From a virus: a stretch of DNA of 64,000 nt. A program made the position numbers and the translations under genes. How positions within the stretch are numbered: position 1 is the first letter of the stretch; the number at the start of each line of letters is the position of its first letter. Of this stretch, positions 5,425 through 34,584 are shown piece by piece. Below the pieces are notes generated by a model. The model ran no database searches. It saw nothing but the letters and a program-made list of their open reading frames with translations, and was not told the origin of the DNA. The stretch covers positions 34,353 to 98,352 of IMG/VR virus record IMGVR_UViG_3300016478_000246; one strand, 5' to 3'.

Positions 5425-5456
5425 TTTGGATAAATCAAAAAAATATTGTATATTTG
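5425..5456 (+). promoter_or_regulatory. Bacteroidota-type -33/-7 promoter for the cargo/RNAP genes
   Basis: TTTG (5425-5428), 20-nt spacer, TATATTTG (5449-5456) matches the TTTG-N19-21-TAnnTTTG consensus. Confidence 0.75.
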
Positions 5457-5477
5457 CCTATATTTAAAAACATTGCA

Positions 5478-12300: not shown

Positions 12301-15300
12301 GCTATTAACGAACGCATTAATGCCACCCAAGATAGAATTGATGTATTTGAGCAGAGCGAGGACCATAAAGATTTGTTTAAGGATGATTCGGCGAAATTTA
12401 TTGAATCTCTTAAAGAACAAAAGGTTGTACTTGAACAGTTAAAAGGTGCTGCGCTCAACAACAAGGGTAACAAGGAAGCACTTGACACTAAACTCAAAAA
12501 CATTGAGAGCCAATCAATGATGAGCGCATTTGGACTTATGCTCGATGGCAATAAGGTTAAGATTTCTAACATGGCCTTGATTGAAAAAATTAAAGCTATT
12601 GTTGGTGTTGACGTTTTAAATAAGCTAATCTCAAACCTTGAGACTGATGGGATGGTGGGTGATTATGTCTTTATAGACAAGTTCATGCACGACCTGACAG
12701 CGGACCAACGTACGCAGATTTCTGAGGCTATCAAGGCTGAGCATGCCGTCGTTAAAGACAGATTATCTAAGAGCGTATTTAGGCTCAAAGTCGCTGATGG
12801 AAGACTTGATAAGTATGCAGCTATTCTTGAAAACCCTCAAAAGATTTTGACGGTATTCCTTGGTTCTAAGAAGATGTTTAAAAAGGGCGCTGATGGATAT
12901 ATTTTCCTAACGTCCACGACTAATAAAAAGAACATTATTGATAGATATATGATTCATGGCAATTTAGATTTGTTGCTTGAGGAAATAACTATTGACAATG
13001 GCAAAACACTGATGGCTGAAAATGTTAAATTAACAGCCCAGGATGTTACTGATGTGGTAGAGTTTTTGAAGGATATGATTCAGATGCGTAACAACGCACG
13101 AATCCTTAGCGACCTGGCATCAACGTCTGATATGAGTAAGTTTGCAAAGGCTGAAAAAGACTTGTTGACTTCAACAACTATTGGACCATCACAACAACAG
13201 CGTTCAACTATTAAGCGCATATATAAGTGGCTTGGTGATTTCAGCGACACTAAGAATAGCGGCTTCTCAGACATGTTAATTGCTAATGGTATAGCTGGTA
13301 CCGGTAAGACAATGATAGTGGCTAAAATGCTGTTTAAATTGCTTGCAAAGACTGCTGGTATCAATGTCAATAAGAATATTATGGTATTAGGTGCAACCAA
13401 AGAGGTGGCAGACAATTTATCAAACTCTATCGGCAAGACTATTGGCGCGACAAGCAAAGCTGTTGAAGATTTAAAGGAAGAAGATCTTAATGACAATATA
13501 TCAATCATAGCAGTCGATGAAATCGGTGTTCTTAATATTGTAAGACTGGGAGAACTGGCTGTTAAGTTACGCAACGTTAATGCTAAGCGAATCGAAAAAG
13601 GCTTAAATCCAATTAAATTGATTGGATTTGGGGACCCTAACCAGGTGACTGAGGTTGAAGGAGATAACGCCTCGCGTATTACAGAGCTTGAGGGGAAGGT
13701 TAATGAAGTTCAAACGACAGACTTAGTTGATATTAAGTTTGCCCCAACATTAATGGTTCAGTACCGAAGCGATATTGATGCAATCAACGAAGCAGCGGAT
13801 GAGTTTAGTGGCCGCAAAAAGCCAGTTAAAAACATCAGCGCGGTATCAAATGTAAAGAGTGATGAGTACGAAGCTAAAGATGCTAAAGGCGTTCATGCTT
13901 ACGATAATATCAACTCATTTATTCAGCGCATCGAAGGATTCTTAAAAGCTAACGAAAAGAAAACTATCACGCTGGCATATAATCTGCCTGAAAACAAGGA
14001 AGAGATCTACAAGCGTCTTTCAGACGAGGCTCGCAAAAGAGTTGTATTTAAAAACTTCTTTGAGTTGCAGGGTTTAACGATTGACAACTTGTTTATCAAT
14101 GTTAAAGTTAAAGGCACTGACCAGAAAAGGTTCAACTCATCAATGTATATGCTTTTATCTCGCGCAACTAATTATGTGGCTATTAACGATAATCATAGAA
14201 ATTTTGAGCAGAAGGTAGACCCAATATCTATGGAGAAGGTTGCCGATAGAAATGTTGAGCAAAAATCCAAGAGCAAAGATGCTTATGATAAAGTTGTTGA
14301 AGAAGAACTCGCTGTGATGGGTGATGTTGTTATAGCAAAACAACCAACGCTTAAAAAGACACCAAAAGTCAGCACTCCGCCAACACAAAACGATAAGCCT
14401 GAGCTAAATCCCGTAAATCATCAGCCTGAATCTCCAGTAGAAGAAGAAGTTGATGATACCGATGACCGCGAAATAACCCCAGAGGGAAAAGCTGAGCTTG
14501 CAGCAAAAGAAGCTGAGCGTGTTAAAGACAAGCCTGATGATGCTAAGATTGGTGATATAATCGAAGATACGTGGGAGCCAGGTCAGGTTAAGGTAGAAAA
14601 TCCAAGAGGAGCTAACTTTAAAACTGCCGATTTAAAAGACGGAGATAAACTTTTTGTTCTTAAAATTACCCCAGGCCAAATCAAGGGCGGTCCTAAAGAG
14701 GTTGCTATACTTGTAAAAGAAATTGAAGTTGCTGGAGAAAAGAAATACATTGAAGTTGCATGGCTCAATAAAAAAGAGGTCAAAGACCTTGGTCTTGAAG
14801 ACCACCCATTGTTTAAGTCAAAGAAGGGTGTGGACCGAAGCAATGATAATGATATGTACTCTGATGTTGAGCACGCAATGTTCAAAGATGAGGATGGCAA
14901 TTTAGTTCAAGTTAATGTTGACGCTGCAAGAGGATTTAAAGTTAAGTACGACCCAAATATCAAAGCTACTGGTAATATAATTAGCGATACTGCTGGATAT
15001 ATTGCAGATAAATTTAAGGTTTTGACAGGCAAGCTTAATGTTGAGTACTTTTTGCCGACACGTTCCACTATGGATAAAACAAATCCTAAGAACGCTTATA
15101 GCAATTTACCACTTGATTTGGGGGTGCCGTATTTGATCTTCACCTTGCCAAACGGTAAAACAATTCATGTCCGCTTAAATCCAAAGCCTTTTACTAAAGA
15201 TAATTCATGGACAATCAATGGAGTATCTGCTTTTGAAAGACTAAGATTATTCACTGAAGGGTCAGCAGCTATTATTAAGTGGCTGGAAGAGAATTCAATT

Positions 15301-18300
15301 GCAACATCAATAGGCTCTTTTTCGTACAGAGATTTGTTGCACGCAATAGGCTCTGACAAAGAACTGATGATAGCCCCTGATGGTGATAAGCGATTTAAAC
15401 TCATAGAGGGATTATCTGCGACCACATTTGAAGGAGCTTTTAATAATAGCATTGACGCACAAAAAATGTCAGCATTCTTTGGTGGGGATATTGATTTGTT
15501 CAATAGATTTATCACTGAAAACAGAGCCGCCCTTGAAAATGTATTAAATCAATACTTCTCTGTTAAGGAGGAGACTGAGATTATCAATATCACAAATTCT
15601 ATCAAAGAGGGAGACCCGTATAAATTAGGTGGTGCATTTGAAGTGTTTGCAGATGTTGTTAATAACAAATTTGCAGAAATGATTTCAGGACCACTTGCTG
15701 CTGAGCTGGCCAAAAATAATCCATCAAGAGAAGCTGTACTTGAAATATTTGGAATAGAGCTCGAATTAACCAAAGATGGCGTCCCATCTGAAAGTGAGTC
15801 AAATAAAGAAAAGCTTGCCGCTGCTGAAAAATTTTCAAAAGAGTTTGAAAAGCTTCATAGGGTCCACATAACAAAAGAAAAGCTTGCCGAAATAGCTTTT
15901 AAATCATGGACTGCGTTTGAAGAAGGCCAAATGTTTCCAAAAGGCTCATCAAAGAAAATATCAAGCAATGGAAGCGAACAGAATGCCTTTAAGATAATCC
16001 GTGACTTATACAAGCAAATGTTGGTGTTTAGTCCAATAGAGCATGAAGATGAGAACGGTATTATATACAAATGGCATGCGGAATTTAACAACAAAAAAAT
16101 TGATGGCAAACATGTTATTACCAGGGCGTACCCAGGAGAAGAAGATAGGCCGTTCATAGTTCAGGGGCGTACAACTCAAAATTCTCCAATACAAGCTATC
16201 CTCAACAACGTAGCGCGCTCCAACAAAACTATCAATGGTAAAAACCTGCGCAAGTACGCTCCTAAGAAAAGAGTGCTTGTAACACACTATGAGAGTGATG
16301 CTGTAACGTTGCTATGGGAGAAACGCATTGATAAGACAACCGTTGATCATCCAGTGGTAGAAAATATGCACCTTGATGCAAGGGCTCATGGAGTTAATGA
16401 AGAGGCTCTCGTGAAGTACATATCTATCAGAGATGCTGCTATTGCTGAATACAATAAAGCCAAGGGTTACGCATCAAACAAAGACCATACTGATGAAGAC
16501 AGGGTTGCTATCCAGTCAGTATTACAAGAGTCTATCGAAGAAGAGTTGATTGATAGTCTCGTTAAAAATGAGGCTGACACCAACTGGGCAATGGATGATC
16601 TTGATGAAATACTTTCAGGGAATACTCGTCGTCAGATTGTAAGCAACGAAATCCGTGATGCTAATAAAAACGGTCTTGCTGCTATGCGAGAATATCAGGA
16701 AAACTTCTCATCAGACTTTGCTGGCATCCAGGAAAGTACTTTAATTATCAAAAGAGATGTGCCTTCCGCTAAGCCAGAGCAAGCTCCTGCTGAAGCCGCC
16801 GCAGCTCCACAAGAACAAATTGATGTAGTTCCTGAAGAGGAAACTGAGGCTGGTGTCGGATTACTTGATATTGGTGGAAGCCTTAGCGATATTGGTATGC
16901 CCAAAGATGATTTTGATGACGCGTTCTTAGTCAAAGAGGGTACATCTCAAGAGCAACTTGGTAGGGTTATTAATGTAAACACAGCATTGGCTTATTTAAG
17001 GCGCTTATTTCCTAACGCAGACATTAACACATTTAGATTCTTAGAGTCTGTTAGAGGGCAAGGAAAAGATGTTTTTGGGCGTTTTGTTGACGGTATAATT
17101 GAAGTTGAAAAAATTGCTAAATCAGATAACCTCTATGAGAACATAGTTCGTCATGAAGCATTCCATAAAGTGTGGCGTGAGTTCATGACCGCATCGGATA
17201 GAAAGATAGTTGTTGAGGCTTACCTTAAAACACTTCCTAAAGATGAGCAAGCTAAATATAGCAATATGAGTTATGCTTATTTGGCTATGGAACTTGAAGA
17301 GCACATAGCAAGGGCTTATCAGGTCTATAATAAAAACCAGGATATTAAACCAGGACCAATGCGCAAAGCCATGTTATTCTTAAAGAGAATATTTAGAGAC
17401 TTGATGCACTTCCTAACTGGCAATCCGGCAGAGTTAAACCATTATTTCAACTTGATTGACTATGGATTCTTTAATACTCAGTTTGATCAGTTTAGAGGCT
17501 CCAAAGGATACTATGGTATTATTAAAGACTTTCAGAGTGTTGATAACTATATCTACGCTAAAGAGTTTGTTGCAGAGACTTACAAGTATTTCTTGTTTAA
17601 TGGACGCGGGCCTTCAAAAATCCCAATGTCTCAGCAAGAAATGAACGCAGCAGTTATTTTAGTGGCTCAAGATAGACTCAATAAGCGCAAAGCGTTTCTT
17701 AACGCCAATGCTCAAAAGTATATGGACAAGGAGCTTACTAAAGAGCAGGTTGAAAAATATGAACAAGCTGAGAAGGAAGCTAAGGCTTATGAGATGTTAT
17801 TACTATCTGACAAGGTTTTAAAAGACACTGAGAAGTTAAATGATTACAAAAAGATACTTGATGACGAAGCTATTGATAAAGAGTCTAAGGAATACAAGGA
17901 GGCTAAAGAGGCGTATGACAAAACTATTACACGAATCAATAAGGCTAAAAACCAGGACTTCCCAAGATTCTCAAAAATACTTGATGAGATTTTACCAGGC
18001 CGTGCAGACAATAAACTGGCCGCTGGTGTTTTAACGGTTGGGGATAAAGTTGAAGACACTGAAATCGACTACGAGGATGAAGAAGAGTTTAAAGACCCAT
18101 CTGCCGACTCTGGCGTAACAGCATTATCTCCGTTTGAAGCCAACTCTGACAAGCACGATAGGGAGACTAAAATGTTTGCAAGCGTTAAACACGCTTTATC
18201 AACTGCAAGAAATCTCCAATATAATACATTTATTGATGGTGGTTTGGCGTTTAGGATGGTGTTTAAGTGGTTTGAAGGATTGAACAATGATTCAAACGAA

Positions 18301-21300
18301 ATCCTATTGCAAGTGCGCAACAGAATGATTAATGACGTTTTCAAAGGCGACCATAAAATTACTGATACTGAACTGATTAAAGATTATGGCAATAGGGAGG
18401 ATGTGTCAATGTATTTTGCCCTTAAAGAAATATATGACATTGCATCGTCAAACTTTTATAGCAAAAGGTATTATGATGCAAATCCTGAACTGAAAGGCAG
18501 TAGGCTTGAGGATAATATCGCAGTAATCCTTGACAGCAAGGGTGACGTCGCTCATCTTGCAGTTCATAAAAAGGGTGAGGATATTAGCAAGGCTTTGTTG
18601 CAGGACTTAAAGAACAATGCTGATGTTATATTAATATCTGCAAAAGACCTTAAGCTTGATAAAAACAACAAACATTTATTGCTCGTTCAAGAAATGATTG
18701 CTAAGGCAGCAAAAGAAGGGCTTACCCTTAAAGACTATGAAATCTCTGCGGTAATGCAAAAGGAGATATTTAGAAATACCTGGGTTGAAATACAAAACAC
18801 TTTCTCCTCAATGAAAGAGTCGAACCTAATAGTTGTTAAACGAAAAGATTCTTTTAAAGGTATTGAATACTCAGTTTCATCCGGGGCGAGCACTGAAAAG
18901 CAACAGTTGGTTATTAATAATGTCAAAGACGAGATTGCTAAGAAGTTTAAAACTAAGTCTGAGTTTATGGCATGGATTAAAACTCAGGCAACAACTTTTG
19001 ATTTAAAGTCCGCAGACATTGATGCGATGACCGATGAGCAGCTTAAAGAAACTATCAAAGCATTCTTTAAGAGTATCGGCATAACAAGCAAGCCTGACTT
19101 TAAGAACACTACAAGAGTTGTTTGGGACTCAGTTGTGAGAGAATTAAATTGGTTTAGCTCTGCGAACATGGTTAAATGGGCGGAGTCACAAGAGGCTAAA
19201 GCCGTCGACAAGGCTGCTGATGAAAACGACATGATTGCTGGTCGCAAGGATGAAGAAGATGCTGATTATATTGATGAGGTATTTGAAGAAGAGGGAACTA
19301 TTCTTAACAAACTCGCGTCTGTAATATCAGCAGAAAATACTAAAAGACGCGCAGGCTCATTCAGAGGCGCTGACGACAGAAAGCGATATACTATTGTTAT
19401 GTCGGAGTTTGCGACTAAGGTTATAACCCAACTCAAGTCGCATGAGTTTGGAGTGAGAGGCGGCAACATTAAGCTACCAGATTACTTAAAGACTGACTTC
19501 ATGCGTGCTAACCCAATTCTTGCGGGATTGCAAAAGATTCACAAATTCCACTTGCATGGTGGTAATAAATACTCAAACAATTATAGTGAAGATAAAGTAA
19601 TTGACTACAATAAAGAAGGATTCCAGCAGTACATGGAAAGGTCATTTATGGCCTACTTCATGCGTGGATTTAAAAAGGGTGGAAGTTCTGTTGAATACTT
19701 CCAGCCAGTGTATGTAAAATCTAACAGAAAAGATACTACTCCCGCAAAGATGAATGTCTTGACATCTGAAAAGATTATAAACACAATTTATCCACAGATA
19801 TTTAATCAGCAATTATTACAAGACCCAGACTTGGGAGACAAATGGAATGTTGATGATGAAGGAACTCCGGTAGATGTATTTAAGTTTGTTAACATGGGGC
19901 CGTTAAAACAGGCTGTCATAGATGCAACTGGCAATAAATTTACCAAAGAAAAGTTTATTGAAATGATGCGTCAGGGTAAGACCTGGAATGATTTAGACTC
20001 CATATTTGGTGAAGGCACTATAAACAAGGTCAAAGAAAATCTCAACAAATACTTTGATGGTATTGCAAAACAGCTTGCTCAGCGCATGGTTACGGAAGGG
20101 GTTAAATTGCATGTTGATATGGCACAGATGGTTGAAAACTTGCTTGTGTTTGATGGCATGGACCCAAAGGTTGCTAAAGAAACTGTTGAAAAAGAGTTTA
20201 AAGACTTTGGTACTAATTTATTTCAGAGTGCAAGTGCTAATGCTAAAAAAGAAGGCAAAGGTATATACTCTAACAAAGCATCAATGCTTGAGGCCGCAGT
20301 AAGATTATTTGCTATGAACAACGAAGTTAATTCATATGCGCTTAATCAAATATTCACTGGTAATCAAAATGTGTTTGGCAAAGGAGTTTCGATACTTAAG
20401 CGTATGTCTGTCATCTTTGGTCCTGGTATGGGTATAGCTGTTGGACCTATGGGTGCAAAAGTTAAATCAAACGTGCTTGTGCTTAAAGACCCAACCTATG
20501 GTAGCGAATATAGGAAGTTAATTTATGGGCAAGTAGGATTGACTGAGAGCGAAATAAGTGAGCTTCTTTCAAAGAACTCCAGAGGTGCAATAAATTACGC
20601 TGATGGACAGGGTTATATAACTCCTAAAAGAGCACAAGAGCTTAGACGGGCTGTTGGAGCATCCTACAATCTATCAACAGTTGGTAAGCCTTTGTGGTAT
20701 GATATTGATGAAAATGGCGTTGCCCATGCAATTAAATACTCATGGATTGAGCTTACTGACGAGATTGTAAATAGTGACAGCACGGGAGGGTTAAAGGCCC
20801 TTAGGGAGCTTATGGAGAAGCATGATGTTGATGAAGCAGTATTTGCATCAGCCGTTAAGGTTGGATTGCCAAAAGGCGTTGTTGACTGGGATGCCGTTAT
20901 GAACAAGACTGCTGATGACGACATGGTTTCAAAAGCGATGCTTCAAATGAAAAATGCTAACTATCGCTTGCAGCTTAACCCTGAGCATGGATTTGGTGAT
21001 AATAACACCACCGTTCCATCACAGTTAATGTTTATCCTCAATATTTTAAACAACAATGTTGAAGAAGCTGATAAAGCTTATGATGCATTAATGAATTTAT
21101 ATAAGATTGGATTTAAGGAGCTTTCAGAGAAAATCAAGAAACATGGTAAGCTTAGTGAAGAGAAGGTTTTAGACACCCTTAAGACTAAGTTTAAATCATC
21201 TCCATCAGCAGAGATTGAATCTAATCTTTTGGATGAAGGTGTGACCACCGATTGGCCAGCAATCACTAATAAAGCATTTAGCCAGATGACATCGTTATTC

Positions 21301-24300
21301 TCAAAGAACACTATTAACCAAAGGCTTAAAGGTGGTAAGACGGTATTGATGGCGTCAAATGGCGTTACTGTCAATGGCAGAGAATTGTCTTATAGCGTTG
21401 AAGTTGATGCTGATGGAAGAAAGACGATAATGTCGGAAGCCGTTTTAACAAGAGAAGCTGCCAAACAAATATTAACTCCTGAAGAATATAAAGAGTTGAA
21501 TGATGCTATTGCAAAAGGCAGGACTCCTAATCTTATATTTACTAATGGTAATTTATTTGGCTATCGTATCCCATCTTCTGAATTGCACAGTGGTGTAGCT
21601 CTTAAGATAGTTGGACTTATTGATGGACCAGGAGTTAACATTGTTGTTCCTAAATACATTGTAGAGGTTCATGGTAGTGACTTTGACGTTGACTCGTTAT
21701 TTGTTATTGGACGTGAAGTGGTTTATAATAAAGAAGGAGTTCTTATCAATTACGATTGGGATAAAAAGAATAATCGCTATGAATTAAGAATTGCAACTGA
21801 GGATGAAATCGAAGCATTGCCTATTAAAGACAAGAAGCGCTACTATAAAAACATTGTAACAGAAATGCTTTTAAAAGCTATCTCAAAGCGTGAAAACTTT
21901 GTTCGTACCAACTCGGCCATCTCCCTTGCAGCCCTTGAAGGACTAAGGGTTAAGATTGCCAGAGAGACCGGTGGCAGCGTTGTAAAGAGTGAAAAGAACT
22001 TATCAAATGTTTTAGAGGCATTTGAAGTTCACCAATCATCACACAACGGTAGTGATGGTGTAGGTATCTTTGCAAGCTCATTTAAAGCCATAGCTTACGC
22101 TATGAGGGCTGGTCTCAACAAAGCAATCCCAAGAGTGACCATCAATGATAATGATGATAGACAGAAGATTGTGTTTAATGGCAAATTAATTGATTTGTTG
22201 TCAAACAAGATAACAACTTTTGAAATGATTGATGCGCTTGTAAATGCTGCGGTTGATAACGTTAAGGAGCAAATACTTCCGTATTTTAATCTTAATGCAA
22301 ACACCATGTCATCATTTGTTGGAATGCTGGCATTAGATGCAGGTGAAACTAATGGCATCAGCAATTCAAATGAATTGGCTGGGCGTATGGCAAGACAGTT
22401 GTTCTTTAAGAATATCGCTGACTATAAATCTGGTAATAGCTTCATGGCGACTGCCGGAGTTATCAATGACATTGCAGAAGCGCTTAAAAAACTTGGCAAA
22501 GATATTCCTGAAAGTTACGAAGACTTGACCACCGAAGAGTTGACAAAAGCTTTAGCGTTTAACGAAAAGGCTGGTATTAACTCTTTAAATGAGCTGTATG
22601 AAAAACTTAAAAATACAACCGATGCAGAACTTATTGATTTTGCAGCACAACAAGTTAAATTCTTTGAGTTTTACAAGAGCTTTAATAAAGTGGGTGAGGA
22701 TTTGTCTAAGTTGTCTGGATTGATGTCGATACTAAGAGAGTTTCCATCTGATGCAATTGCCCTTGAAACTAAAGTAAAAGATTTTGGCTCAGTGTTTGAA
22801 GAAGTTGATGAAAAGATTGCTAAGCCTATAGATGGGGATTTAGAGAGAACTATTGATTATTCAAAAGTAAAATCTAAAGATTCATTTAGCATAGATCTGC
22901 AAGAGCTGTTTATTACCGCACCGCACTTAGCTGAGGCGCACAAAGTATTAACAGAGCTGTATTTAGCGACAGAGTTTTATTTCTTTAAACATAGCAAGGA
23001 GGTTAAAGCATTTGTTGAACAAGTATCTGGGATTACTGGTAAAATTCTTAACGAGACCAGCAACGAAGAAATTGCCGAGGGTGACAAAGAAGAAGGTGAA
23101 AGTAAATCATCCATGAAGCAAGACGTTAAGACTAAAGTCTCTATGCGTGATGATGTTATTAAGTTCTTAATTAATGCCATTAATTGGGACCCAGCATTTC
23201 CTGGGTACAACAATTTACCACCGGCAGAGATTGAGGTTAATAAAGAGAAGCGTACAGTTGCTGGTGTTGATGCGTTTAAAAAGCACTTTGGCGAAAAGAT
23301 ATATGCTCTGAAAGAGCACTTAAAAACTGTTTCATCAGAGCAGGGTGTTAACAAGAAAATCCTTATCAACAAGTTCATTAATGAACTATCACCACGCGTC
23401 GGTTGGGGTGGTATCACTGAGTGGTCTATGCCGCGCTCGGTTGATTTTAAATCTGAGGATTTAATACGTCTTAAGGCTGATTTTGAAAAGCTTAACAAGT
23501 ATGATATTAAATACAACGAAGAAACTAAAAAATGGGAGGTTTCTGAAACTGATGATTTAAGTTACAAAGAGTGGCAAAAAGATTTTGTTAGATATGGAAC
23601 TATTGTTAATGGTATGTCTTTTGGGGCATCAAGCTTTTCACTTGCTTTACCATCTGACTTGTACATGGGGCTTTCTGATGGGCTGAGGGCTATGGTTGAA
23701 GTTATTAAAAACAATCCAAAAATGCTTTATAATAACAAACATAGATTCTTTATTCAATACGCTTTTAACAACATATTAAAAGTTAAGTCTATTGACACCA
23801 AGGCTGAGAAAGAAGGAGCGTCATACTCCGGGTTTGTTGAGATTCAGGACAAGGAACATTTCTTTAATTTAAAATTCCCTCTTGAAGTTACCAAGGATAA
23901 GGATAACAATGAAGTTGTTCATGACAACATGCCATCGTTAATTCGTAGGACTGGTAATAAAATCTCCGACATATTCATGCTTGTTGGTACTAAAGATAAG
24001 CATGCATATTATATAAGGCTTGGAGCACAACGCCCAACAATGACTTACAATACAACTGAAGAAGAGTTTGTGGCAGCAGCCAGCACTGAATTTAAAGATA
24101 ACAAAGACACTATTATGAGTCTTAATGAGTTTAAAGGAATGTCTGAAATTGATGCTGAGGCTGTATGGTCCACCCTAAACGAACAAGTTAGGGCTGAAAG
24201 ATTATTCTCGGTTAAAGTTGATACAACCATGCCGCATATTATAGTACCAAACACTCTTGAAGATAAATTTAAGGTGCAACCAGATTTAGTTGAAATGCTT

Positions 24301-24564
24301 GCTAAAAAATATGGTTCTGAACCATTTATGGCAATTGTTAGAAATCAGTCTGACATCACAATATCAAATCCAAGAGTTGTTATGCTTAAAAAGCGGTCAA
24401 GTGACTCGTTGGCGGTGGTTGGAACAAAAGAAGATGTAGTTGACAATACATCATGGGAAGCTGTTAAAGATAATAATGTTATCAAGAGCAGCGGCTGGAC
24501 TAAAGAAGACTGGGATGCAAAGTCACAGGAAGAAAAGGATCAATTTATTAAATGTTACGTATAA
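9355..24564 (+). CDS. Giant virion-packaged RNA polymerase polyprotein (SF1 helicase + zincin + two-barrel RNAP)
   Basis: 5069 aa. Catalytic DFDVD (21679-21693) preceded by 'GYRIP'; also 'DGQGY', 'FASAVKVG', 'AAVDNVKE'. SF1 motifs GIAGTGKT (13288-13311), DEIG, GDPNQ, QYRS, QGLT, YMLLSRA. HEAFH zincin (17152-17166). Confidence 0.88.
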   Translation: MAKTIEDKALGLEFVSDDPLKSYNPSIAVKQTGDFNVPGIGTVSRESLAPVNLWQADPTRQEAVGQYMQGIDMADKYLSRENITPEDLDDINEVMYRNQSTVEAVANGFVSRAISILPKTLNTIGSIGGLGYGMMDYMFDAINPNEEADLGRSLNQGLDNFWVRGMNHWDESLKELMPVFGSKYGYYSDSLMDNLSSAKFWAEDGFDGLAFTASAFVPGAGWAKALDAMSKTAKGANFFAQTAKFAKYGKAAQAMNAMSKEQLVASGVDKLTNILTTATNVINESALEAYEATKNFDKDTFIAKRLQESPEAKRIMQLEEQVSMMRDDSEIAGLINPEEGPKAMKMRELQEAKDNLLNQLDEEYLEAKGQLGLNVFRANNMVLILPDYLQSKLFTKAFGNASKSIRAEARQAANKAIRTTALKEGFKQAGYAIGREGFWEENAQTAASTYYQEKAFGTPRIDNDVVGILDNMVKNATFQDKEGAKSIILGAAAGGLSSFGLGAYAQKQKNKEFDKEEKLWQNILNIAGASVKTAVDDWRALADENGNISTENFIKAFTFAKDKKDAIESQQVALLLGNEIAHELGRNDEITKLFWGEVSSVNGSKYISQEEAIEVIKGKLTALKEVDGADNETIAMADGFIAKVDKLSENLKNAEETINRVIDSEDKNAADNKDVLTRSLFFAMNKLAEVNDLIENGETISDRQKEALGALAEEYQEAIDALSDKNKVKGLVQKFTNDANYHLALQNQIAEETAKPKETQDPTKLKVLKYQLEEFYEIYGFQTNADKKSRRAWGTNGLRLGFAPTDVVNRGTLGLRDKYFYDLGRDALARNEVERLMADVNGDVTAAEIVSFVESENFHYLTKEEADRLSAIADSKAQALKEAKDNAIVIRDDFSIDTTAFDELSKSPDNIFTEATSSKPSELIGNAYAKKSQERTEFIGSEDKEMSFANNIRRRLATKFKRDTDTMIEKINEDIDSYSNIEAINERINATQDRIDVFEQSEDHKDLFKDDSAKFIESLKEQKVVLEQLKGAALNNKGNKEALDTKLKNIESQSMMSAFGLMLDGNKVKISNMALIEKIKAIVGVDVLNKLISNLETDGMVGDYVFIDKFMHDLTADQRTQISEAIKAEHAVVKDRLSKSVFRLKVADGRLDKYAAILENPQKILTVFLGSKKMFKKGADGYIFLTSTTNKKNIIDRYMIHGNLDLLLEEITIDNGKTLMAENVKLTAQDVTDVVEFLKDMIQMRNNARILSDLASTSDMSKFAKAEKDLLTSTTIGPSQQQRSTIKRIYKWLGDFSDTKNSGFSDMLIANGIAGTGKTMIVAKMLFKLLAKTAGINVNKNIMVLGATKEVADNLSNSIGKTIGATSKAVEDLKEEDLNDNISIIAVDEIGVLNIVRLGELAVKLRNVNAKRIEKGLNPIKLIGFGDPNQVTEVEGDNASRITELEGKVNEVQTTDLVDIKFAPTLMVQYRSDIDAINEAADEFSGRKKPVKNISAVSNVKSDEYEAKDAKGVHAYDNINSFIQRIEGFLKANEKKTITLAYNLPENKEEIYKRLSDEARKRVVFKNFFELQGLTIDNLFINVKVKGTDQKRFNSSMYMLLSRATNYVAINDNHRNFEQKVDPISMEKVADRNVEQKSKSKDAYDKVVEEELAVMGDVVIAKQPTLKKTPKVSTPPTQNDKPELNPVNHQPESPVEEEVDDTDDREITPEGKAELAAKEAERVKDKPDDAKIGDIIEDTWEPGQVKVENPRGANFKTADLKDGDKLFVLKITPGQIKGGPKEVAILVKEIEVAGEKKYIEVAWLNKKEVKDLGLEDHPLFKSKKGVDRSNDNDMYSDVEHAMFKDEDGNLVQVNVDAARGFKVKYDPNIKATGNIISDTAGYIADKFKVLTGKLNVEYFLPTRSTMDKTNPKNAYSNLPLDLGVPYLIFTLPNGKTIHVRLNPKPFTKDNSWTINGVSAFERLRLFTEGSAAIIKWLEENSIATSIGSFSYRDLLHAIGSDKELMIAPDGDKRFKLIEGLSATTFEGAFNNSIDAQKMSAFFGGDIDLFNRFITENRAALENVLNQYFSVKEETEIINITNSIKEGDPYKLGGAFEVFADVVNNKFAEMISGPLAAELAKNNPSREAVLEIFGIELELTKDGVPSESESNKEKLAAAEKFSKEFEKLHRVHITKEKLAEIAFKSWTAFEEGQMFPKGSSKKISSNGSEQNAFKIIRDLYKQMLVFSPIEHEDENGIIYKWHAEFNNKKIDGKHVITRAYPGEEDRPFIVQGRTTQNSPIQAILNNVARSNKTINGKNLRKYAPKKRVLVTHYESDAVTLLWEKRIDKTTVDHPVVENMHLDARAHGVNEEALVKYISIRDAAIAEYNKAKGYASNKDHTDEDRVAIQSVLQESIEEELIDSLVKNEADTNWAMDDLDEILSGNTRRQIVSNEIRDANKNGLAAMREYQENFSSDFAGIQESTLIIKRDVPSAKPEQAPAEAAAAPQEQIDVVPEEETEAGVGLLDIGGSLSDIGMPKDDFDDAFLVKEGTSQEQLGRVINVNTALAYLRRLFPNADINTFRFLESVRGQGKDVFGRFVDGIIEVEKIAKSDNLYENIVRHEAFHKVWREFMTASDRKIVVEAYLKTLPKDEQAKYSNMSYAYLAMELEEHIARAYQVYNKNQDIKPGPMRKAMLFLKRIFRDLMHFLTGNPAELNHYFNLIDYGFFNTQFDQFRGSKGYYGIIKDFQSVDNYIYAKEFVAETYKYFLFNGRGPSKIPMSQQEMNAAVILVAQDRLNKRKAFLNANAQKYMDKELTKEQVEKYEQAEKEAKAYEMLLLSDKVLKDTEKLNDYKKILDDEAIDKESKEYKEAKEAYDKTITRINKAKNQDFPRFSKILDEILPGRADNKLAAGVLTVGDKVEDTEIDYEDEEEFKDPSADSGVTALSPFEANSDKHDRETKMFASVKHALSTARNLQYNTFIDGGLAFRMVFKWFEGLNNDSNEILLQVRNRMINDVFKGDHKITDTELIKDYGNREDVSMYFALKEIYDIASSNFYSKRYYDANPELKGSRLEDNIAVILDSKGDVAHLAVHKKGEDISKALLQDLKNNADVILISAKDLKLDKNNKHLLLVQEMIAKAAKEGLTLKDYEISAVMQKEIFRNTWVEIQNTFSSMKESNLIVVKRKDSFKGIEYSVSSGASTEKQQLVINNVKDEIAKKFKTKSEFMAWIKTQATTFDLKSADIDAMTDEQLKETIKAFFKSIGITSKPDFKNTTRVVWDSVVRELNWFSSANMVKWAESQEAKAVDKAADENDMIAGRKDEEDADYIDEVFEEEGTILNKLASVISAENTKRRAGSFRGADDRKRYTIVMSEFATKVITQLKSHEFGVRGGNIKLPDYLKTDFMRANPILAGLQKIHKFHLHGGNKYSNNYSEDKVIDYNKEGFQQYMERSFMAYFMRGFKKGGSSVEYFQPVYVKSNRKDTTPAKMNVLTSEKIINTIYPQIFNQQLLQDPDLGDKWNVDDEGTPVDVFKFVNMGPLKQAVIDATGNKFTKEKFIEMMRQGKTWNDLDSIFGEGTINKVKENLNKYFDGIAKQLAQRMVTEGVKLHVDMAQMVENLLVFDGMDPKVAKETVEKEFKDFGTNLFQSASANAKKEGKGIYSNKASMLEAAVRLFAMNNEVNSYALNQIFTGNQNVFGKGVSILKRMSVIFGPGMGIAVGPMGAKVKSNVLVLKDPTYGSEYRKLIYGQVGLTESEISELLSKNSRGAINYADGQGYITPKRAQELRRAVGASYNLSTVGKPLWYDIDENGVAHAIKYSWIELTDEIVNSDSTGGLKALRELMEKHDVDEAVFASAVKVGLPKGVVDWDAVMNKTADDDMVSKAMLQMKNANYRLQLNPEHGFGDNNTTVPSQLMFILNILNNNVEEADKAYDALMNLYKIGFKELSEKIKKHGKLSEEKVLDTLKTKFKSSPSAEIESNLLDEGVTTDWPAITNKAFSQMTSLFSKNTINQRLKGGKTVLMASNGVTVNGRELSYSVEVDADGRKTIMSEAVLTREAAKQILTPEEYKELNDAIAKGRTPNLIFTNGNLFGYRIPSSELHSGVALKIVGLIDGPGVNIVVPKYIVEVHGSDFDVDSLFVIGREVVYNKEGVLINYDWDKKNNRYELRIATEDEIEALPIKDKKRYYKNIVTEMLLKAISKRENFVRTNSAISLAALEGLRVKIARETGGSVVKSEKNLSNVLEAFEVHQSSHNGSDGVGIFASSFKAIAYAMRAGLNKAIPRVTINDNDDRQKIVFNGKLIDLLSNKITTFEMIDALVNAAVDNVKEQILPYFNLNANTMSSFVGMLALDAGETNGISNSNELAGRMARQLFFKNIADYKSGNSFMATAGVINDIAEALKKLGKDIPESYEDLTTEELTKALAFNEKAGINSLNELYEKLKNTTDAELIDFAAQQVKFFEFYKSFNKVGEDLSKLSGLMSILREFPSDAIALETKVKDFGSVFEEVDEKIAKPIDGDLERTIDYSKVKSKDSFSIDLQELFITAPHLAEAHKVLTELYLATEFYFFKHSKEVKAFVEQVSGITGKILNETSNEEIAEGDKEEGESKSSMKQDVKTKVSMRDDVIKFLINAINWDPAFPGYNNLPPAEIEVNKEKRTVAGVDAFKKHFGEKIYALKEHLKTVSSEQGVNKKILINKFINELSPRVGWGGITEWSMPRSVDFKSEDLIRLKADFEKLNKYDIKYNEETKKWEVSETDDLSYKEWQKDFVRYGTIVNGMSFGASSFSLALPSDLYMGLSDGLRAMVEVIKNNPKMLYNNKHRFFIQYAFNNILKVKSIDTKAEKEGASYSGFVEIQDKEHFFNLKFPLEVTKDKDNNEVVHDNMPSLIRRTGNKISDIFMLVGTKDKHAYYIRLGAQRPTMTYNTTEEEFVAAASTEFKDNKDTIMSLNEFKGMSEIDAEAVWSTLNEQVRAERLFSVKVDTTMPHIIVPNTLEDKFKVQPDLVEMLAKKYGSEPFMAIVRNQSDITISNPRVVMLKKRSSDSLAVVGTKEDVVDNTSWEAVKDNNVIKSSGWTKEDWDAKSQEEKDQFIKCYV

Positions 24565-24566
24565 TA

Positions 24567-27500
24567 ATGAATAACTGTGTAAATATGAACCATAAGGATT
24601 TTAAAGACCTGGCAGAAATGTCAGGTCTAAATCCTTTGGATTTGGCGCTCAAGATGGGCGTATGGATGAATAATAACAATACGACAGAATGGCCAACATT
24701 AGAGCAATTAGGAATTAAAGCTGTAAAACAAATTGAATTGGTCCAAAGACAAGGCTTACAAGCATCTGAGCCTAAAACCTTTAAGGCTCCAATATTTAAA
24801 AAATGGACCGCTCAATTTAAGGGTGAAAGGTTTGGGCTTAAGTCTATTCTCAAAGATATTACAGGGCTTTCAAAAAACATGAGTTCTCTATTGAACTTTT
24901 TATTGAAAAATGTCAATGGCGATGTTCAATTCCAGATAATCTCAAGAGAGCAGATTATTAAAAAGTTTGGGCAAAAGATGGCTAATTCAAGGGGGTTTTA
25001 TGATACTGATTCAAACACAATCTACTTAAGCTCTGACAGCAAAAACAATCTTGACAATAAAGATTTGCTAACAACAATTCTACATGAGTTAGTCCATAAC
25101 GTATCAGTCAGTAAAATTAAAGCTATTCAGTCTGAGTTAAGGCGGGGAGTGATGAAAAATTCTGGAGTATATACGGAGCTGCAAGACTTATACAATAAGC
25201 TAAAACCGCTCTTGCAAAATAGATTCCCTGAGTATTTTCAAGATGAACTTGGGAATGACTCATTGATTGAATTTATTGTGGCATTATCAGATGAAAAGTT
25301 CACAAAGGCCCTTAATGCTCTTGAAGAAGATAAAGTATCGTTCTTTAAAAAGATTATCAATTGGTTTAAGAATCTGTTGGGAATCAAAGCAAATACCTTG
25401 CATGATAGATTGATGGACGCTTTATACCAATTATCTTCAATGACTATCAGCGAAATTGATAACGTTCAACTCAACAAAACCTTTGCACGCGTTCAGAATT
25501 TTTATGAATTCAATGAAACAACCAAAAAGATTTTAGCTGAAAGCGAGGATTTATCAGTTCAAATGGTTAAGGATGAAGATGGTAATGAAGTTGAGGGTGA
25601 AGTGTATGAAGACGTAAGAAGCGGTAAATTATATAATCGTATCACTTATGGAGCCAAGTCACTATTAAAAGCGTTTGTGCCCAAAAAGTTTGATGGAGAT
25701 TTTTCTCAAAACAAGGCTGATGAAATATGGAAAAACCTTGACCATGATTTTAAAATCAATATAGAGGGGACGTCTTATACTTATGATGAATATCTGTCCA
25801 AGTTGAGAGATAGTTTTAAATTTGGCACCACTCGCGGTCGAATTATGGACCATATCAATCAGTTAATTAATGAGACTGACCCTATGGAACAGTCCAGAAT
25901 TAAAGCATTAATTGCTAAAGAAGCTGCAAAAGGAGGTGTTGAAGAATCAAGGTATAACTGGTTATTTGATGATGTACTCGACCATAAAGGTGCTAAAACC
26001 GGTCAGCAAGTTTATGAGAAAATGTATGAACAGCTTGGCGTTAATAAATTTAAAAAATATGTCAAGGCAGAACTGCGTGACAAGGTTACTACTCAGGTGA
26101 CTGTTGCTTCGGATTTATTAGGATACGCGGGGTCTATAGACATGCTTGTAGAGCACCAAGAAAACTTTTATGGCAAGGATGGAGAGATAGCTGGTAAATA
26201 CCTAAGTATTTATGACTTGAAATCCGGTAAGTCGCAGCTTAACGAAATAGGTATGCATTTGCTGCACTATGGAGAGCAGAACAAATGGATTACCAATGGT
26301 GGGTTAGATATGGCTAAATTACAGATTGCAATTTATGCAATGATGATTAAGCTAAACAATCCTGAGCAGCGATTTAAAAACCTGCAAGTGGTATCAGTGC
26401 AAAATAAATATGAAGCTATGCGCTTTAATAAGCACACCCTGGTTGAAGTTGAATCATTTATCCCCATGATGGAGGCCTTCTTTAAAGATAAAGGCTTAAT
26501 GAAAGAGCTTGGTCTTGACCCCAACATAGCAGCAGATATGGTGCGGCAAAGCCCTGATGTGTTTAATTACAACCATTATCAACATGTTGAGTTCGTTGAA
26601 GATGAAATAAATACTCTTGAAAAAATCAACTTTAAAATAGCTTTAAACGAGCAAATACGCAGGGAGTCTAACATATCAAATGAAGAGAAGTATCGCCTTG
26701 AGAAGGAGATGCAAGAGCTCTTGAAGAAAAAGATTATGTACGAGGAGGATGAGAGTACTGCGTCAGAGTTTTTAAGCCAAAAGAAAACCCCATCAACATC
26801 ATTTGTTGCAAGATGGCTTGGCGGTCTTGGTGATTCAAACCACCCTCTTGTGAAGGCTTTTAAATCAGCGTGGGACAGGGCTTATAATAGGCATACTATT
26901 AATATGCTCGCTAAAGGTGATGAGATTGAAGTAGTTGTGGATGCGCTTAGAAACGATTATAAGAAGCGCAAGACTATTTCTGAAATGGTTGAGGGCGATA
27001 ATCTCACAATGTATGATGAGTTATTAAAAGATGATTTTGTTGAAGGCGTAGGTAATGTTGAACGACTAATCCTCGAAAAAGATGCTGAGTGGTCAAGACT
27101 GAGTGACGCGCAACAAAATTTTATCAAACTTCATGAGAAAATGATGAAAGAGTATTTTGTTGGTAAGGGAGCATATCTCAACACCCAGGCTTCACAAGAC
27201 ATTCGTAAAAAGTCAGTATCTCATCTGCAACTACAAGCGCCAGGTTTTACATATTACGAAGGATTCTTTCCAAAGACTGCTCCATCAGATATGGATCTAA
27301 AGCGTCGATATGGCAAAGGAAATGCCCTTACAGGTGCTATTTTAAGTCTTGAATATAAGAAAGCCCTGCTTGCAAGAAAGTTTAGCTTTGCTGAAGAGTT
27401 TATGTTTGAAAACTATGGTAACGAGCGCATAGCTCTTCCAATTAAATACTTAGGCTCAAGAAAAAATGATGATGAAAAGTATTATTCACATGACTTGGGG

Positions 27501-29162
27501 GCATCATTAACTAAATTTGTTGAGTGGTTAGAGTATAAAAAAGAGATGGACCCGGTTTACGCTATGGGCAAAGCTATTAATTATACAGTCCTGGCTGAAA
27601 CTGCAAGGCTTAGAAATCAAGATAAAGATAAGGAGGCTGATAAGGTTTTGGCCGAAATGGATATTCTTAAAGGATTTTTAAGAAAAGGTGTGCAACGAAT
27701 TTCAAAAGACGATACAATGTGGTTTGGTGAGTTTAATATGAAAATCACTAATCCAGCCACTGGCAAGCCAATATTTTTTGCCCCTGAAAAGTTTTTACGC
27801 GCCCTATCAAAGTGGGCCAGAGACACTACTATGTGGTTTAAGCCTTTTGCCGCTGCTGGTAACACTGTGCAGCAACAGTGGCTGCTTAATCGTAAAGCAA
27901 TTGATGACGCATGGGCAAATAAATGGTTTGGGGATTCTAATAGCCAAACAGACATGGGGCCTAAAGATATGGCATTTGCGACAGAAATATTTATTGGTAT
28001 TGGTCGCGACATAATTCTTGGCAAGCTTAAAGAAAATAAAGCCTGGGCTATGATGGAGCAATTTAACTATATTGACGGCAACACTATGGCTGCTTTAGAA
28101 CGCAGATACCATACTATGAGAGAGCGTACGTCGTTTGACGAGGCAGCTCTTATAATGCATACTATGGGTGAATTTTATGCTCTTACATCAACAATGTTTG
28201 CGCAAATGAACCACATGAAGCTTAAAGACGGTCGTTCATTTTATGACGCTTATGAATACAAGGATGGTAAATTAACATGGACTGGCGGAGTGCGCGCCAA
28301 AATTAAAATGGGTAATGGTCAATATAAAGATTTGATGGGCTTAGACTCAAAAGAAATAGCCAGGTTTAAAAGAATCCATGAAAGAATGCTTGGCAACTAC
28401 CGCTCTGATGAGTTTTCAGGGCTTGAGTTATATGCTTTTGGACAGTTCTTTGTGACTCTTAAAAAATACTTCCAGCGTATTGTGTTAAACCTTGTTGACT
28501 CAAAAACCATAGATCCTCTATTAGGCGAATACAGGCCAACAGGGACCATGAGAGATGCCGGGATGGAGTACGATGTGGTTGTGTGGCAAGGGCGCCATAT
28601 TGAGGCTAAATTTACGTCTGCAATGAGATTGTTTGCGCTACCATTTTGGTTCTTTAAAGGGCAATATAAAGACAAAATAAATGCTCTTACGTTTGAGCAA
28701 AAACGTAACATGCTTGAGTTTGCACATACTTACATTGAATTAGCTGTTTTAGCCATATTATTTTCAACATTCTTTTCAGATGTTCCAGATGATGATGCCA
28801 CAAAGAAATGGGCTAAGATGTATCTTATAGACAACCTGGCGCAACAGTATAACCCTGTGGATATATTGAGAACTATGAGCAACTTAACACCGGTTGGATT
28901 CACCAAGTCTTTTAGGACTATGGAAAATATGGTATTGTTTAGCGGCTCGTTAATAGCTCTTGGAGAAGGCGATAGAGATAGGGCGTTCACGCAGCAAGGC
29001 AATTTGCGAGGATTTATTGAAATGCAAAAATCAATTCCTGGATTAGCAGCATATTACGACCTTACGAGAAAACTTGATTCTATTGAATTCTTAAACCCTG
29101 ACAACGAGACGAGTAATTATATGACTCAAATGTTTAATGAAAAGGGTATGATTTTCAGATAA
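24567..29162 (+). CDS. Large virion cargo protein with zincin and PD-(D/E)XK nuclease-like domains
   Basis: 'RGFY...TILHELVH' (HELVH 25083-25097) with downstream 'EF'. 'GSIDML...IYDLKSG...QIAIYA' is a RecB/Cas4-like motif set. Likely start ATG 24567, just after the RNAP stop. Confidence 0.72.
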   Translation: MNNCVNMNHKDFKDLAEMSGLNPLDLALKMGVWMNNNNTTEWPTLEQLGIKAVKQIELVQRQGLQASEPKTFKAPIFKKWTAQFKGERFGLKSILKDITGLSKNMSSLLNFLLKNVNGDVQFQIISREQIIKKFGQKMANSRGFYDTDSNTIYLSSDSKNNLDNKDLLTTILHELVHNVSVSKIKAIQSELRRGVMKNSGVYTELQDLYNKLKPLLQNRFPEYFQDELGNDSLIEFIVALSDEKFTKALNALEEDKVSFFKKIINWFKNLLGIKANTLHDRLMDALYQLSSMTISEIDNVQLNKTFARVQNFYEFNETTKKILAESEDLSVQMVKDEDGNEVEGEVYEDVRSGKLYNRITYGAKSLLKAFVPKKFDGDFSQNKADEIWKNLDHDFKINIEGTSYTYDEYLSKLRDSFKFGTTRGRIMDHINQLINETDPMEQSRIKALIAKEAAKGGVEESRYNWLFDDVLDHKGAKTGQQVYEKMYEQLGVNKFKKYVKAELRDKVTTQVTVASDLLGYAGSIDMLVEHQENFYGKDGEIAGKYLSIYDLKSGKSQLNEIGMHLLHYGEQNKWITNGGLDMAKLQIAIYAMMIKLNNPEQRFKNLQVVSVQNKYEAMRFNKHTLVEVESFIPMMEAFFKDKGLMKELGLDPNIAADMVRQSPDVFNYNHYQHVEFVEDEINTLEKINFKIALNEQIRRESNISNEEKYRLEKEMQELLKKKIMYEEDESTASEFLSQKKTPSTSFVARWLGGLGDSNHPLVKAFKSAWDRAYNRHTINMLAKGDEIEVVVDALRNDYKKRKTISEMVEGDNLTMYDELLKDDFVEGVGNVERLILEKDAEWSRLSDAQQNFIKLHEKMMKEYFVGKGAYLNTQASQDIRKKSVSHLQLQAPGFTYYEGFFPKTAPSDMDLKRRYGKGNALTGAILSLEYKKALLARKFSFAEEFMFENYGNERIALPIKYLGSRKNDDEKYYSHDLGASLTKFVEWLEYKKEMDPVYAMGKAINYTVLAETARLRNQDKDKEADKVLAEMDILKGFLRKGVQRISKDDTMWFGEFNMKITNPATGKPIFFAPEKFLRALSKWARDTTMWFKPFAAAGNTVQQQWLLNRKAIDDAWANKWFGDSNSQTDMGPKDMAFATEIFIGIGRDIILGKLKENKAWAMMEQFNYIDGNTMAALERRYHTMRERTSFDEAALIMHTMGEFYALTSTMFAQMNHMKLKDGRSFYDAYEYKDGKLTWTGGVRAKIKMGNGQYKDLMGLDSKEIARFKRIHERMLGNYRSDEFSGLELYAFGQFFVTLKKYFQRIVLNLVDSKTIDPLLGEYRPTGTMRDAGMEYDVVVWQGRHIEAKFTSAMRLFALPFWFFKGQYKDKINALTFEQKRNMLEFAHTYIELAVLAILFSTFFSDVPDDDATKKWAKMYLIDNLAQQYNPVDILRTMSNLTPVGFTKSFRTMENMVLFSGSLIALGEGDRDRAFTQQGNLRGFIEMQKSIPGLAAYYDLTRKLDSIEFLNPDNETSNYMTQMFNEKGMIFR

Positions 29163-33871: not shown

Positions 33872-34584
33872 TAGTTAATAACATTAATAAACACTTCGCC
33901 TGTGTTGGTTTCAAATGTGAGATACTCAAGTTTTCTATCAAGACAATCAGTGAAATAAATATCACATCCATTAATACTTTCTTTATGAATAGCGCTCACT
34001 CTTGAATGACCAACGATTTGCGTATAGCCTGGTAACGGCCTAACAAACTCACTCTTATCTTGCCAAAATGGTCCTGGATATAAATCTCCTCCACCCCTGC
34101 AATACCCAACAGTAAGCATAGCATTAAATTGTTCCTTATCTTTTGGATTATCAAGTTGATAAGATATATTGATACTTTTATTGCCCTCAAACTCGTTATT
34201 GAACCATGACTCTGATACTCCGGCATGAGTCAATAAGAAGGTGTTTGAAAAAACCATTGAGCTTTTAAAGCAATTACTGTTAATTGGATTGTGAAGTATT
34301 TCATGCACCTGTGGGATTATCGCATGCCTTGTGCCAGAACATCTGGCTTCTCCTTTCTTAGGGTATAAATATGGCAACTCGTGATTGCCATACAACAACT
34401 TACAAAACTCTTTTGATTTAGCAAACTCAACAATCTCTTTAAAGTTATCAAGTGCTACCTCATCAGACACATCTCTGCCATCAAGGTAATCTCCTAAAAA
34501 CATCCAATATCTAACAGACTTATCCTCGACGATTTTCTTCCAAATATCTTTACCGTGGAGGTCTGGTATAACACCTACTATCAT
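33871..34584 (-). CDS. Calcineurin-like metallophosphoesterase (second)
   Basis: 'PDLHG', 'LGDYLD', 'GNHE', 'THAG', 'VGHS'. Confidence 0.9.
   Translation of the reverse strand: MIVGVIPDLHGKDIWKKIVEDKSVRYWMFLGDYLDGRDVSDEVALDNFKEIVEFAKSKEFCKLLYGNHELPYLYPKKGEARCSGTRHAIIPQVHEILHNPINSNCFKSSMVFSNTFLLTHAGVSESWFNNEFEGNKSINISYQLDNPKDKEQFNAMLTVGYCRGGGDLYPGPFWQDKSEFVRPLPGYTQIVGHSRVSAIHKESINGCDIYFTDCLDRKLEYLTFETNTGEVFINVIN

Follow-up and report, generated by a model that had tools for sequence, protein, structure and literature searches.

We describe here a cluster of virion genes in a 64,000-nucleotide stretch of viral DNA (IMG/VR record IMGVR_UViG_3300016478_000246, positions 34,353 to 98,352; referred to below, at its full length, as the window), and in particular two cysteine residues that face each other across the junction between a giant virion RNA polymerase (RNAP) fusion and the protein encoded immediately downstream of it. 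The order of the genes, in which a muzzle-like gene is followed by two cargo genes and then by the RNAP module, and the size of the genome (about 100 kb, a single contig of 98,352 bp) correspond to the layout of the Crassvirales type. The relevant features, numbered from the first nucleotide of the window, are as follows.

1156..5364, plus strand: muzzle-like virion structural protein, 1402 residues, 9 cysteines by scripted count (match to phrog_28748, E-value 8e-77)
5454..7403, plus strand: cargo protein 1, 649 residues from TTG 5454 (641 residues from ATG 5478), no cysteine (map of open reading frames, ORFs)
7406..9340, plus strand: cargo protein 2, 644 residues, no cysteine (ORF map and cysteine count)
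9355..24564, plus strand: virion RNAP fusion, 5069 residues, single cysteine at residue 5067 (BLASTP, tblastn and cysteine count)
21679..21693, plus strand: DFDVD catalytic motif of the crAss-type virion RNAP, residues 4109-4113 (motif scan)
24442..24561, plus strand: C-terminal helical module of the RNAP, its last 40 residues, the final helix of which bears the cysteine (AlphaFold2 and alignment)
24553..24555, plus strand: TGT codon of RNAP Cys5067, third residue from the C-terminus, in KCYV before the stop codon (sequence)
24567..29162, plus strand (longest ORF from 24552): gp65-like zincin protein, 1531 residues, single cysteine at residue 4 (BLASTP to phi14:2 g065)
24567..24710, plus strand: conserved 48-residue N-terminal module of the gp65-like protein (alignments and AlphaFold2)
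24576..24578, plus strand: TGT codon of gp65-like Cys4, in MNNC (sequence)
25083..25097, plus strand: HELVH zincin-type metal-binding motif, residues 173-177 of the gp65-like protein (motif scan)

Cysteine is strongly suppressed in four consecutive proteins of this cluster. A scripted count found 2 cysteines in the 7,893 residues of cargo protein 1, cargo protein 2, the RNAP fusion and the gp65-like protein (649, 644, 5069 and 1531 residues), as compared with about 83 expected. This corresponds to a frequency of 0.025%, against 1.05% in the control ORFs (taken from the window and 14 related loci) from which the expectation was taken. Most other ORFs of the window contain 1-3% cysteine, and the muzzle-like protein, in contrast to the cargo proteins, has not been purged of this residue. 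Both retained cysteines lie at most four residues from the facing termini, the first 5,066 residues of the RNAP fusion being devoid of cysteine. A sequence-only reading of this DNA, made by manual scan, had reported no cysteine in either cargo protein, one in the RNAP (third from the C-terminus), one at residue 4 of the next protein and many in the muzzle protein. All these observations were reproduced by the scripted count, which gave 0 and 0 for the two cargo proteins and revealed no further cysteine in the four proteins.

The numbering of the downstream cysteine is affected by the choice of the start codon, as the gp65-like gene has three in-frame ATGs, at 24552, 24567 and 24585. The cysteine codon specifies residue 4 when counted from ATG 24567 and residue 9 when counted from ATG 24552 of the longest ORF. 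The ambiguity of the start, when judged from the window alone, speaks for a reading in which the two cysteines have no function, either because they are leftovers or a product of chance, or because the downstream one falls outside the real protein, initiated at ATG 24585. However, in homologs the sequence starts as MxxC[IV]N and no Met precedes it; they align with the MNNC of the window at M-x-x-C, and the position of the window Met at 24585 is taken by Ile, Thr or Gly, in no case by Met. For these reasons ATG 24567 is, by alignment with homologs, the true start of the gene, and starts at 24552 and 24585, both contradicted by this alignment, were rejected. Gene callers took the longest ORF (MLRIIMNNC; database proteins P0001 and P0002), and its start at 24552 overlaps the RNAP cysteine codon.

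Conservation of both cysteines was observed within the clade to which the window belongs. Relatives in IMG/VR were found by an alignment-driven scan, a query with a single protein having given none. The cysteine pair was present in all 12 related IMG/VR loci, where the upstream ORF ends in NCL, KCL, NCY, PCFS or ACFGA directly before the stop codon (overall C[LYF]x0-2) and the downstream ORF begins M(x)xxC[IV]N. A 10-sequence alignment of the C-terminal 300 residues of the RNAP has just two invariant columns, one of them being the cysteine, and the cysteine of the downstream protein is invariant in alignments of 7 and of 10 sequences. Homologs of the downstream protein were limited to two that are near-identical and four distant ones; in the latter, similarity is confined to the first ~50 residues, and all of them begin MxxC or MxC. 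A profile-free search with the last 600 residues of the RNAP retrieved distant proteins whose ends are of this kind; in P0016 (2,826 residues), for instance, cysteines occur only at positions 4 and -2 (negative numbers being counted from the C-terminus). Among 210 control ORFs, a cysteine occurs at residues 2-6 in 5.7% and in the last four residues in 6.2%. Because the placement recurs in 12 of 12 IMG/VR relatives, and at 19 of the 20 junctions described below, against these background frequencies, the position of both cysteines at facing termini is not, on such comparisons, due to chance. Both residues remain invariant among relatives which share only 12-27% identity in the terminal regions, and the pattern extends over Steigviridae, Suoliviridae, Intestiviridae, FpV4 and the window's own clade. 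This leaves the absence of any function with a negligible probability, and we consider that reading already refuted by the conservation data. Neither a nucleotide search with the junction region nor tblastn with the 60-residue N-terminal module gave a match among GenBank phages, and the window's clade is without a close relative deposited there.

Assignment of the window proteins to the Crassvirales virion RNAP module is based on similarity to proteins of phages phi14:2 and crAss001. In BLASTP comparisons, residues 113-510 of the RNAP fusion matched phi14:2 g067 (E-value 4e-19), residues 2459-2658 matched crAss001 gp47 (8e-5), and residues 3645-4118 matched phi14:2 g066 (4e-17), the last alignment ending at the DFDxD motif of g066. 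Matches by tblastn were obtained in 16 phage records, mostly of Crassvirales, and included RNAPs. On these alignments, the 5069-residue protein is a gp67/gp47-like N-terminal part of about 2,790 residues fused in frame to a gp66/gp50-like C-terminal part. The phi14:2 gp66 protein is a crAss-type virion RNAP with a solved structure, and the catalytic motif of this enzyme type is described in a preprint (bioRxiv 10.1101/2020.03.07.982082). The gp65-like protein aligns with phi14:2 g065 across the HExxH zincin region (BLASTP, E-value 9e-5), its matches to Pfam DUF6782/SprT-like families being weak and below the cut-off. Thus, the DFDxD motif, the gp67/gp47-like partner region and the zincin partner of a module of the phi14:2 g067/g066/g065 type are all found in the window, and cargo protein 1 occupies the gene position after the muzzle, as in phi14:2 and crAss001. 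The gp67-like half of the fusion also contains an AAA_30/PIF1-like P-loop helicase signature (13267-13695, residues ~1305-1447; Pfam AAA_30 E-value 5.5e-7, above the cut-off), because of which relatives are annotated as 'DNA helicase'.

The junctions between proteins of the virion RNAP module were then compared in 16 genomes, representing Steigviridae, Suoliviridae, Intestiviridae, FpV4 and the window. A cysteine pair was found at 19 of the 20 junctions, in module proteins with an overall cysteine content of 0.14%. Conservation of terminal cysteines in consecutive cargo genes across Crassvirales, including genomes in which the polyprotein is split, had been put forward by the sequence-only reading as a way of checking its proposal, and it was borne out by this survey, with one pair for each split in phi14:2 and crAss001. 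The arrangement in particular genomes was as follows.

phi14:2: g067 (1797 residues), one cysteine, the last residue; g066 (2180 residues), cysteines 3 and 2179; g065 (1421 residues), cysteine 3
crAss001: gp47, one cysteine at -3; gp50, cysteines 5, 1334 and -9; gp49, one cysteine at 5
Suoliviridae with fused RNAPs (cr50_1, cr1_1, cr56_1, cr109_1, cr118_1, cr10_1): one pair, at the RNAP/zincin junction
FpV4: one pair, at the RNAP/zincin junction
Intestiviridae (crAssphage, crAss002, cr3_1, cr8_1): zincin protein first, ending in SCM, VCS, FRC or TCK; RNAP fusion beginning MSC or MANNC

In the split genomes the pair thus occurs at each junction (g067|g066|g065 and gp47|gp50|gp49), and the phi14:2 module contains 4 cysteines in 5,398 residues, all of them at its two junctions. 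These phi14:2 and crAss001 proteins are homologous to those of the window and follow the same terminal-cysteine rule. They differ in being three proteins with two pairs, whereas the window fuses the first two and retains one pair, and no cysteine is present near residue 2,790 of its fusion, the equivalent of the gp67|gp66-type junction. The crAss002 RNAP fusion fits the MSC pattern only if its start is Met33 of the annotated coding sequence (CDS). The annotated start of this gene, gp33 (L019:10151-10249), is probably 32 codons too far upstream, and Met33-Ser-Cys aligns with the MSC of crAssphage gp44 and cr3_1. Two of the surveyed genomes contain in-frame stop codons under translation table 11 and still have the cysteine pair: cr109_1 (L027), with 9 to 70 of them per gene in all four module genes, and cr56_1, with at least two in gp40 (L022:3999-5798). 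These stops point to a reassigned stop codon.

Several properties of the survey bear on what the cysteines are paired with. The outer ends of every chain, i.e. the N-terminus of the first protein and the C-terminus of the last one, lack cysteine in all 16 genomes. In Intestiviridae the cysteine-bearing side changes together with gene order, the zincin protein having the C-terminal cysteine and the RNAP fusion the N-terminal one. The upstream partner is encoded on the other strand in crAss001, IAS virus and cr126_1, yet the cysteine at the end of its product is retained; the codons of the C-terminal cysteines are TGT in 16 cases and TGC in 3. Since the opposite-strand partners keep the residue and both codons are used, the pattern is, as judged from these genomes, one that acts at the level of protein, not DNA. 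An origin of the two TGT codons in DNA sequence or in translational coupling, or as a side effect of stop and start signals that overlap, was rejected on account of the same three opposite-strand partners. The occurrence of pairs at splits, their absence from fusions, the bare outer ends, the dependence of the cysteine-bearing side on gene order and the retention of cysteine by opposite-strand partners together argue that each C-terminal cysteine pairs with the N-terminal cysteine of the next protein. The signature suggests a disulfide between the facing ends, without proving it.

One may also consider that the terminal cysteines are not paired with each other at all, and that they bond to the portal, muzzle or capsid, share a metal ion, or serve as a thiol mark of chain ends. 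This would agree with the Cys-rich nature of the muzzle and tail proteins and with the disulfides formed by crAss001 tail proteins, as well as with orphan terminal cysteines in two smaller cargo proteins, crAssphage gp47 (L017:551-3124, 857 residues; its only cysteine at -2) and FpV4 gp30 (L018:1096-2892, 598 residues; its only cysteine at residue 5). Yet in the RNAP module of every surveyed genome except IAS virus the number of C-terminal cysteines equals that of N-terminal ones, the outer ends of the chains are bare in all of them, and in Intestiviridae the sides are exchanged along with gene order. A metal site is further disfavored by the lack of a conserved nearby His or second Cys (the His at +5 is absent in loci L007 and L012 and in phi14:2), and in phage A4, described below, the same signature is a Cys-Cys bond. 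We therefore find this set of alternatives quite improbable. Candidates of other kinds were rejected. In the case of a split intein or trans-splicing, only 0-10 residues follow the C-terminal cysteine, no HINT or intein family was detected in Pfam scans, and the Asn before the Cys is not conserved. A lipobox is contradicted by the location of the N-terminal cysteine at residues 3-6 with no hydrophobic leader, and CaaX lipidation by the variable location of the C-terminal one, which can be anywhere between the last residue and the 11th-last.

A structural precedent is provided by cyanopodophage A4 (Anabaena phage A-4L), in which cryo-electron microscopy demonstrated a disulfide between gp27 Cys1715 and gp26 Cys5 (PNAS 2025, PMC12002296). 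Our check of the A-4L genome showed that these are the only cysteines of gp27 (1717 residues) and gp26 (1114 residues). As in the window, the genes are consecutive; the giant upstream protein has its sole cysteine third from the C-terminus (NPCQF before the stop codon), and the downstream one has its sole cysteine at residue 5 (MSKHC). The same signature, a sole cysteine near the upstream C-terminus and a sole cysteine at downstream positions 3-6, is found in the window at 5067 of 5069 and 4 of 1531. Unlike the window proteins, those of A4 are arranged as an ordered pentameric ring, and no RNAP is among them; there is a single link in A4, while crassviruses would have one to three depending on gene splitting, and the A4 paper gives the bond as a structural detail, describing no conserved terminal-cysteine rule.

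In view of these data, we consider it likely, with a probability of roughly 70%, that the RNAP fusion and the gp65-like protein are joined end to end by a disulfide into a chain of about 6,600 residues. In the case of the disulfide-chained ejection train proposed by the sequence-only reading, the inter-chain bond has gained support from the comparative predictions and from the A4 disulfide with its identical signature, while ordered threading and reduction in the cytoplasm stay conjectural. More generally, it is by inference that we speak of bond formation in crassviruses, module docking, a role in ejection and reductive release.

Models of the two termini are compatible with such a junction, as both appear to be small, confidently modelled helical modules. 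When the C-terminal 300 residues of the RNAP were modelled with AlphaFold2, confidence was reached only at residues 261-300 (predicted local distance difference test score, pLDDT, 63-85), with helices at 272-277, 281-285 and 289-299 in the numbering of this fragment. Residues 1-50 of the gp65-like protein (pLDDT 78-87) are predicted as a coil at 1-9, which holds Cys4, and helices at 10-19 and 23-37; a low-confidence stretch of ~70 residues (54-121) follows the module, and the models of both terminal regions are low in confidence outside the terminal modules. The 48-residue module, which ends in MGVWMxxNNTxEWPTLEQL, shows much stronger conservation than the other ~1,480 residues, and relatives that have nothing else in common with the window's gp65-like protein retain it. 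Invariant columns are C4, N6, F12, L15, S19-G20, M30, W33-M34, N37, T39 and E41-L48 in the 7-sequence alignment, and M1, C4, N6, L15, P23, L26, M30, V32, M34, N37-T39, P43 and Q47 in the 10-sequence one. We propose, from these models, that the module may be a docking site for the C-terminal helix of the RNAP. In A4, the C-terminal helix of gp27 inserts in a cleft of gp26 and the disulfide further stabilizes this contact (PMC12002296).

These observations also lend themselves to the main rival explanation, according to which the disulfide forms but is purely structural: it would staple the packed cargo or a pre-ejectosome and fix 1:1 co-packaging of RNAP and zincin protein, with no ordered towing, and might break or be irrelevant at ejection. 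The two terminal modules do look like docking domains, and the A4 bond, which sits in the pentameric pre-ejectosome ring atop the portal, was described as stabilizing and not as a towing link (PMC12002296). A staple, however, needs no position 1-4 residues from both chain ends, yet this is what is seen in nearly every lineage. It also leaves unexplained why the pair lies exactly where gene fission loses a peptide bond, and why other cysteines were purged. Moreover, the crAss001 structure did not resolve any ordered density for these cargo proteins (PMC10172136). We regard a purely structural role as unlikely.

Under the end-to-end linkage that we prefer, the following sequence of events may be envisaged. 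The two terminal modules would dock non-covalently first, and Cys5067 in the last RNAP helix and Cys4 at the start of the 48-residue module would then form a disulfide inside the virion, locking the contact once the particle meets oxidizing conditions. This would yield a single covalent chain, nearly linear, in which no more than 2-3 residues overhang where the two proteins are joined. With their other cysteines purged, the four ejected proteins would be kept from forming cross-links with branches or loops, which could not pass the portal and tail channel or the periplasm; where relatives have split genes, a cysteine pair would at each split take the place of the peptide bond that is missing. 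Upon infection the chain would exit the capsid as a unit, so that the RNAP and its partner arrive together at a fixed stoichiometry, and thiol reductants of the host cytoplasm could then separate the chain members.

A number of points weigh against this interpretation. Virion assembly takes place in a reducing cytoplasm, and the lumen inhabited by gut crassviruses is anoxic, either of which may bear on when and whether oxidation occurs. The proposed crassvirus bond rests on a sequence signature and on the analogy with A4. BLASTP comparison of A4 gp26 with the gp65-like protein gave a best E-value of 4.4 (gp27 and the RNAP were not compared); as gp26 has no detectable similarity to the gp65-like protein, the A4 precedent is either an analogy or a case of divergence beyond detection. 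The IAS virus junction gp055|gp056 has no downstream cysteine; the record concerned contains ambiguous bases and CDSs that overlap. Spacing is loose, the cysteine being at -9 in crAss001 gp50 and at -11 in cr10_1, and the orphan cysteines of crAssphage gp47 and FpV4 gp30 have no obvious partner in a neighboring gene. Of the 24 non-self matches to the C-terminal region of the RNAP, 13 lack a C-terminal cysteine, most of these being short predicted proteins that are possibly truncated. Finally, terminal cysteines of cargo proteins are not mentioned in the crAss001 atlas (PMC10172136), in which the word cysteine does not occur, or in the phi14:2 RNAP preprint; likewise, our search of the literature on Crassvirales with the terms cysteine or disulfide found no description of terminal cysteines in crassvirus cargo.

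Suppression of cysteine in ejected proteins has been noticed before in other phages. N4 gp50 and gp71, gp72 and gp73 of phage DEV are Cys-suppressed, which was ascribed to passage through the periplasm (PMC11445570). The statement of the sequence-only reading that the ejected N4 virion RNAP is free of cysteine agrees with this report, in which N4 gp50 and the ejection proteins of Schitoviridae are Cys-suppressed. The crassvirus modules resemble those of N4-like phages in that a giant virion RNAP and its partner ejection proteins are nearly devoid of cysteine. In Schitoviridae, unlike crassviruses, suppression is almost complete (0.00075% cysteine in gp71 homologs) and a single chain makes up the RNAP; the few cysteines in gp72 homologs were put down to annotation or sequencing errors (PMC11445570). 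The RNAPs themselves belong to unrelated families, T7-like in Schitoviridae and of the DFDxD two-barrel type in crassviruses. As to crAss001, disulfides were found in its particle between tail hub and ring proteins, in the tail and not in the cargo (PMC10172136), which shows that such bonds can arise in crassvirus virions. The module proteins of phi14:2 and crAss001 are packaged in virions, as determined by mass spectrometry, and are expected to be ejected.

In the human gut, crassviruses are more abundant than any other phages (PMC10172136). How several megadaltons of cargo, including a multi-part RNAP, are delivered through a narrow tail is left in that paper to 'interactions with one another' (PMC10172136). 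If true, a conserved covalent head-to-tail link would offer a simple and concrete way of delivering the proteins in order and at fixed stoichiometry. Such a link would make clear why one polyprotein in some genomes corresponds to two or three proteins in others, would account for the extreme purge of cysteine, and would take a structural observation made in a single cyanophage to the scale of an entire viral order, the proteins being unrelated. In this respect the window is an example of fusion: it has one junction only, and its 48-residue module of putative docking function is strongly conserved. One could go further and assume a general and evolvable 'terminal cysteine code' of Crassvirales, in which each split of the RNAP module gains a cysteine pair in place of the lost peptide bond, so that the virion always holds one linear covalent thread of up to ~1 MDa, extruded through the tail in fixed order, and cytoplasmic reduction both frees the subunits and switches on the polymerase and the zincin protease. 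This generalization is offered as tentative, and we are inclined to doubt it in its full form.

Two further observations concern genes outside the cargo cluster. A small thioredoxin is encoded near the RNAP module in crAssphage (L017:25941-26219), cr108_1 (L025:25950-26219) and cr8_1 (L026:26659-26928); it may have to do with the terminal cysteine pairs or with ribonucleotide reduction only. In the window, a 523-residue ORF on the minus strand (39818-41389; 74170-75741 of the genome) begins MCGIFG, a start that resembles the N-terminal catalytic cysteine of class-II glutamine amidotransferases. If this protein is an amidotransferase, its N-terminal cysteine would be an ordinary terminal cysteine, unrelated to the pattern in the cargo proteins.

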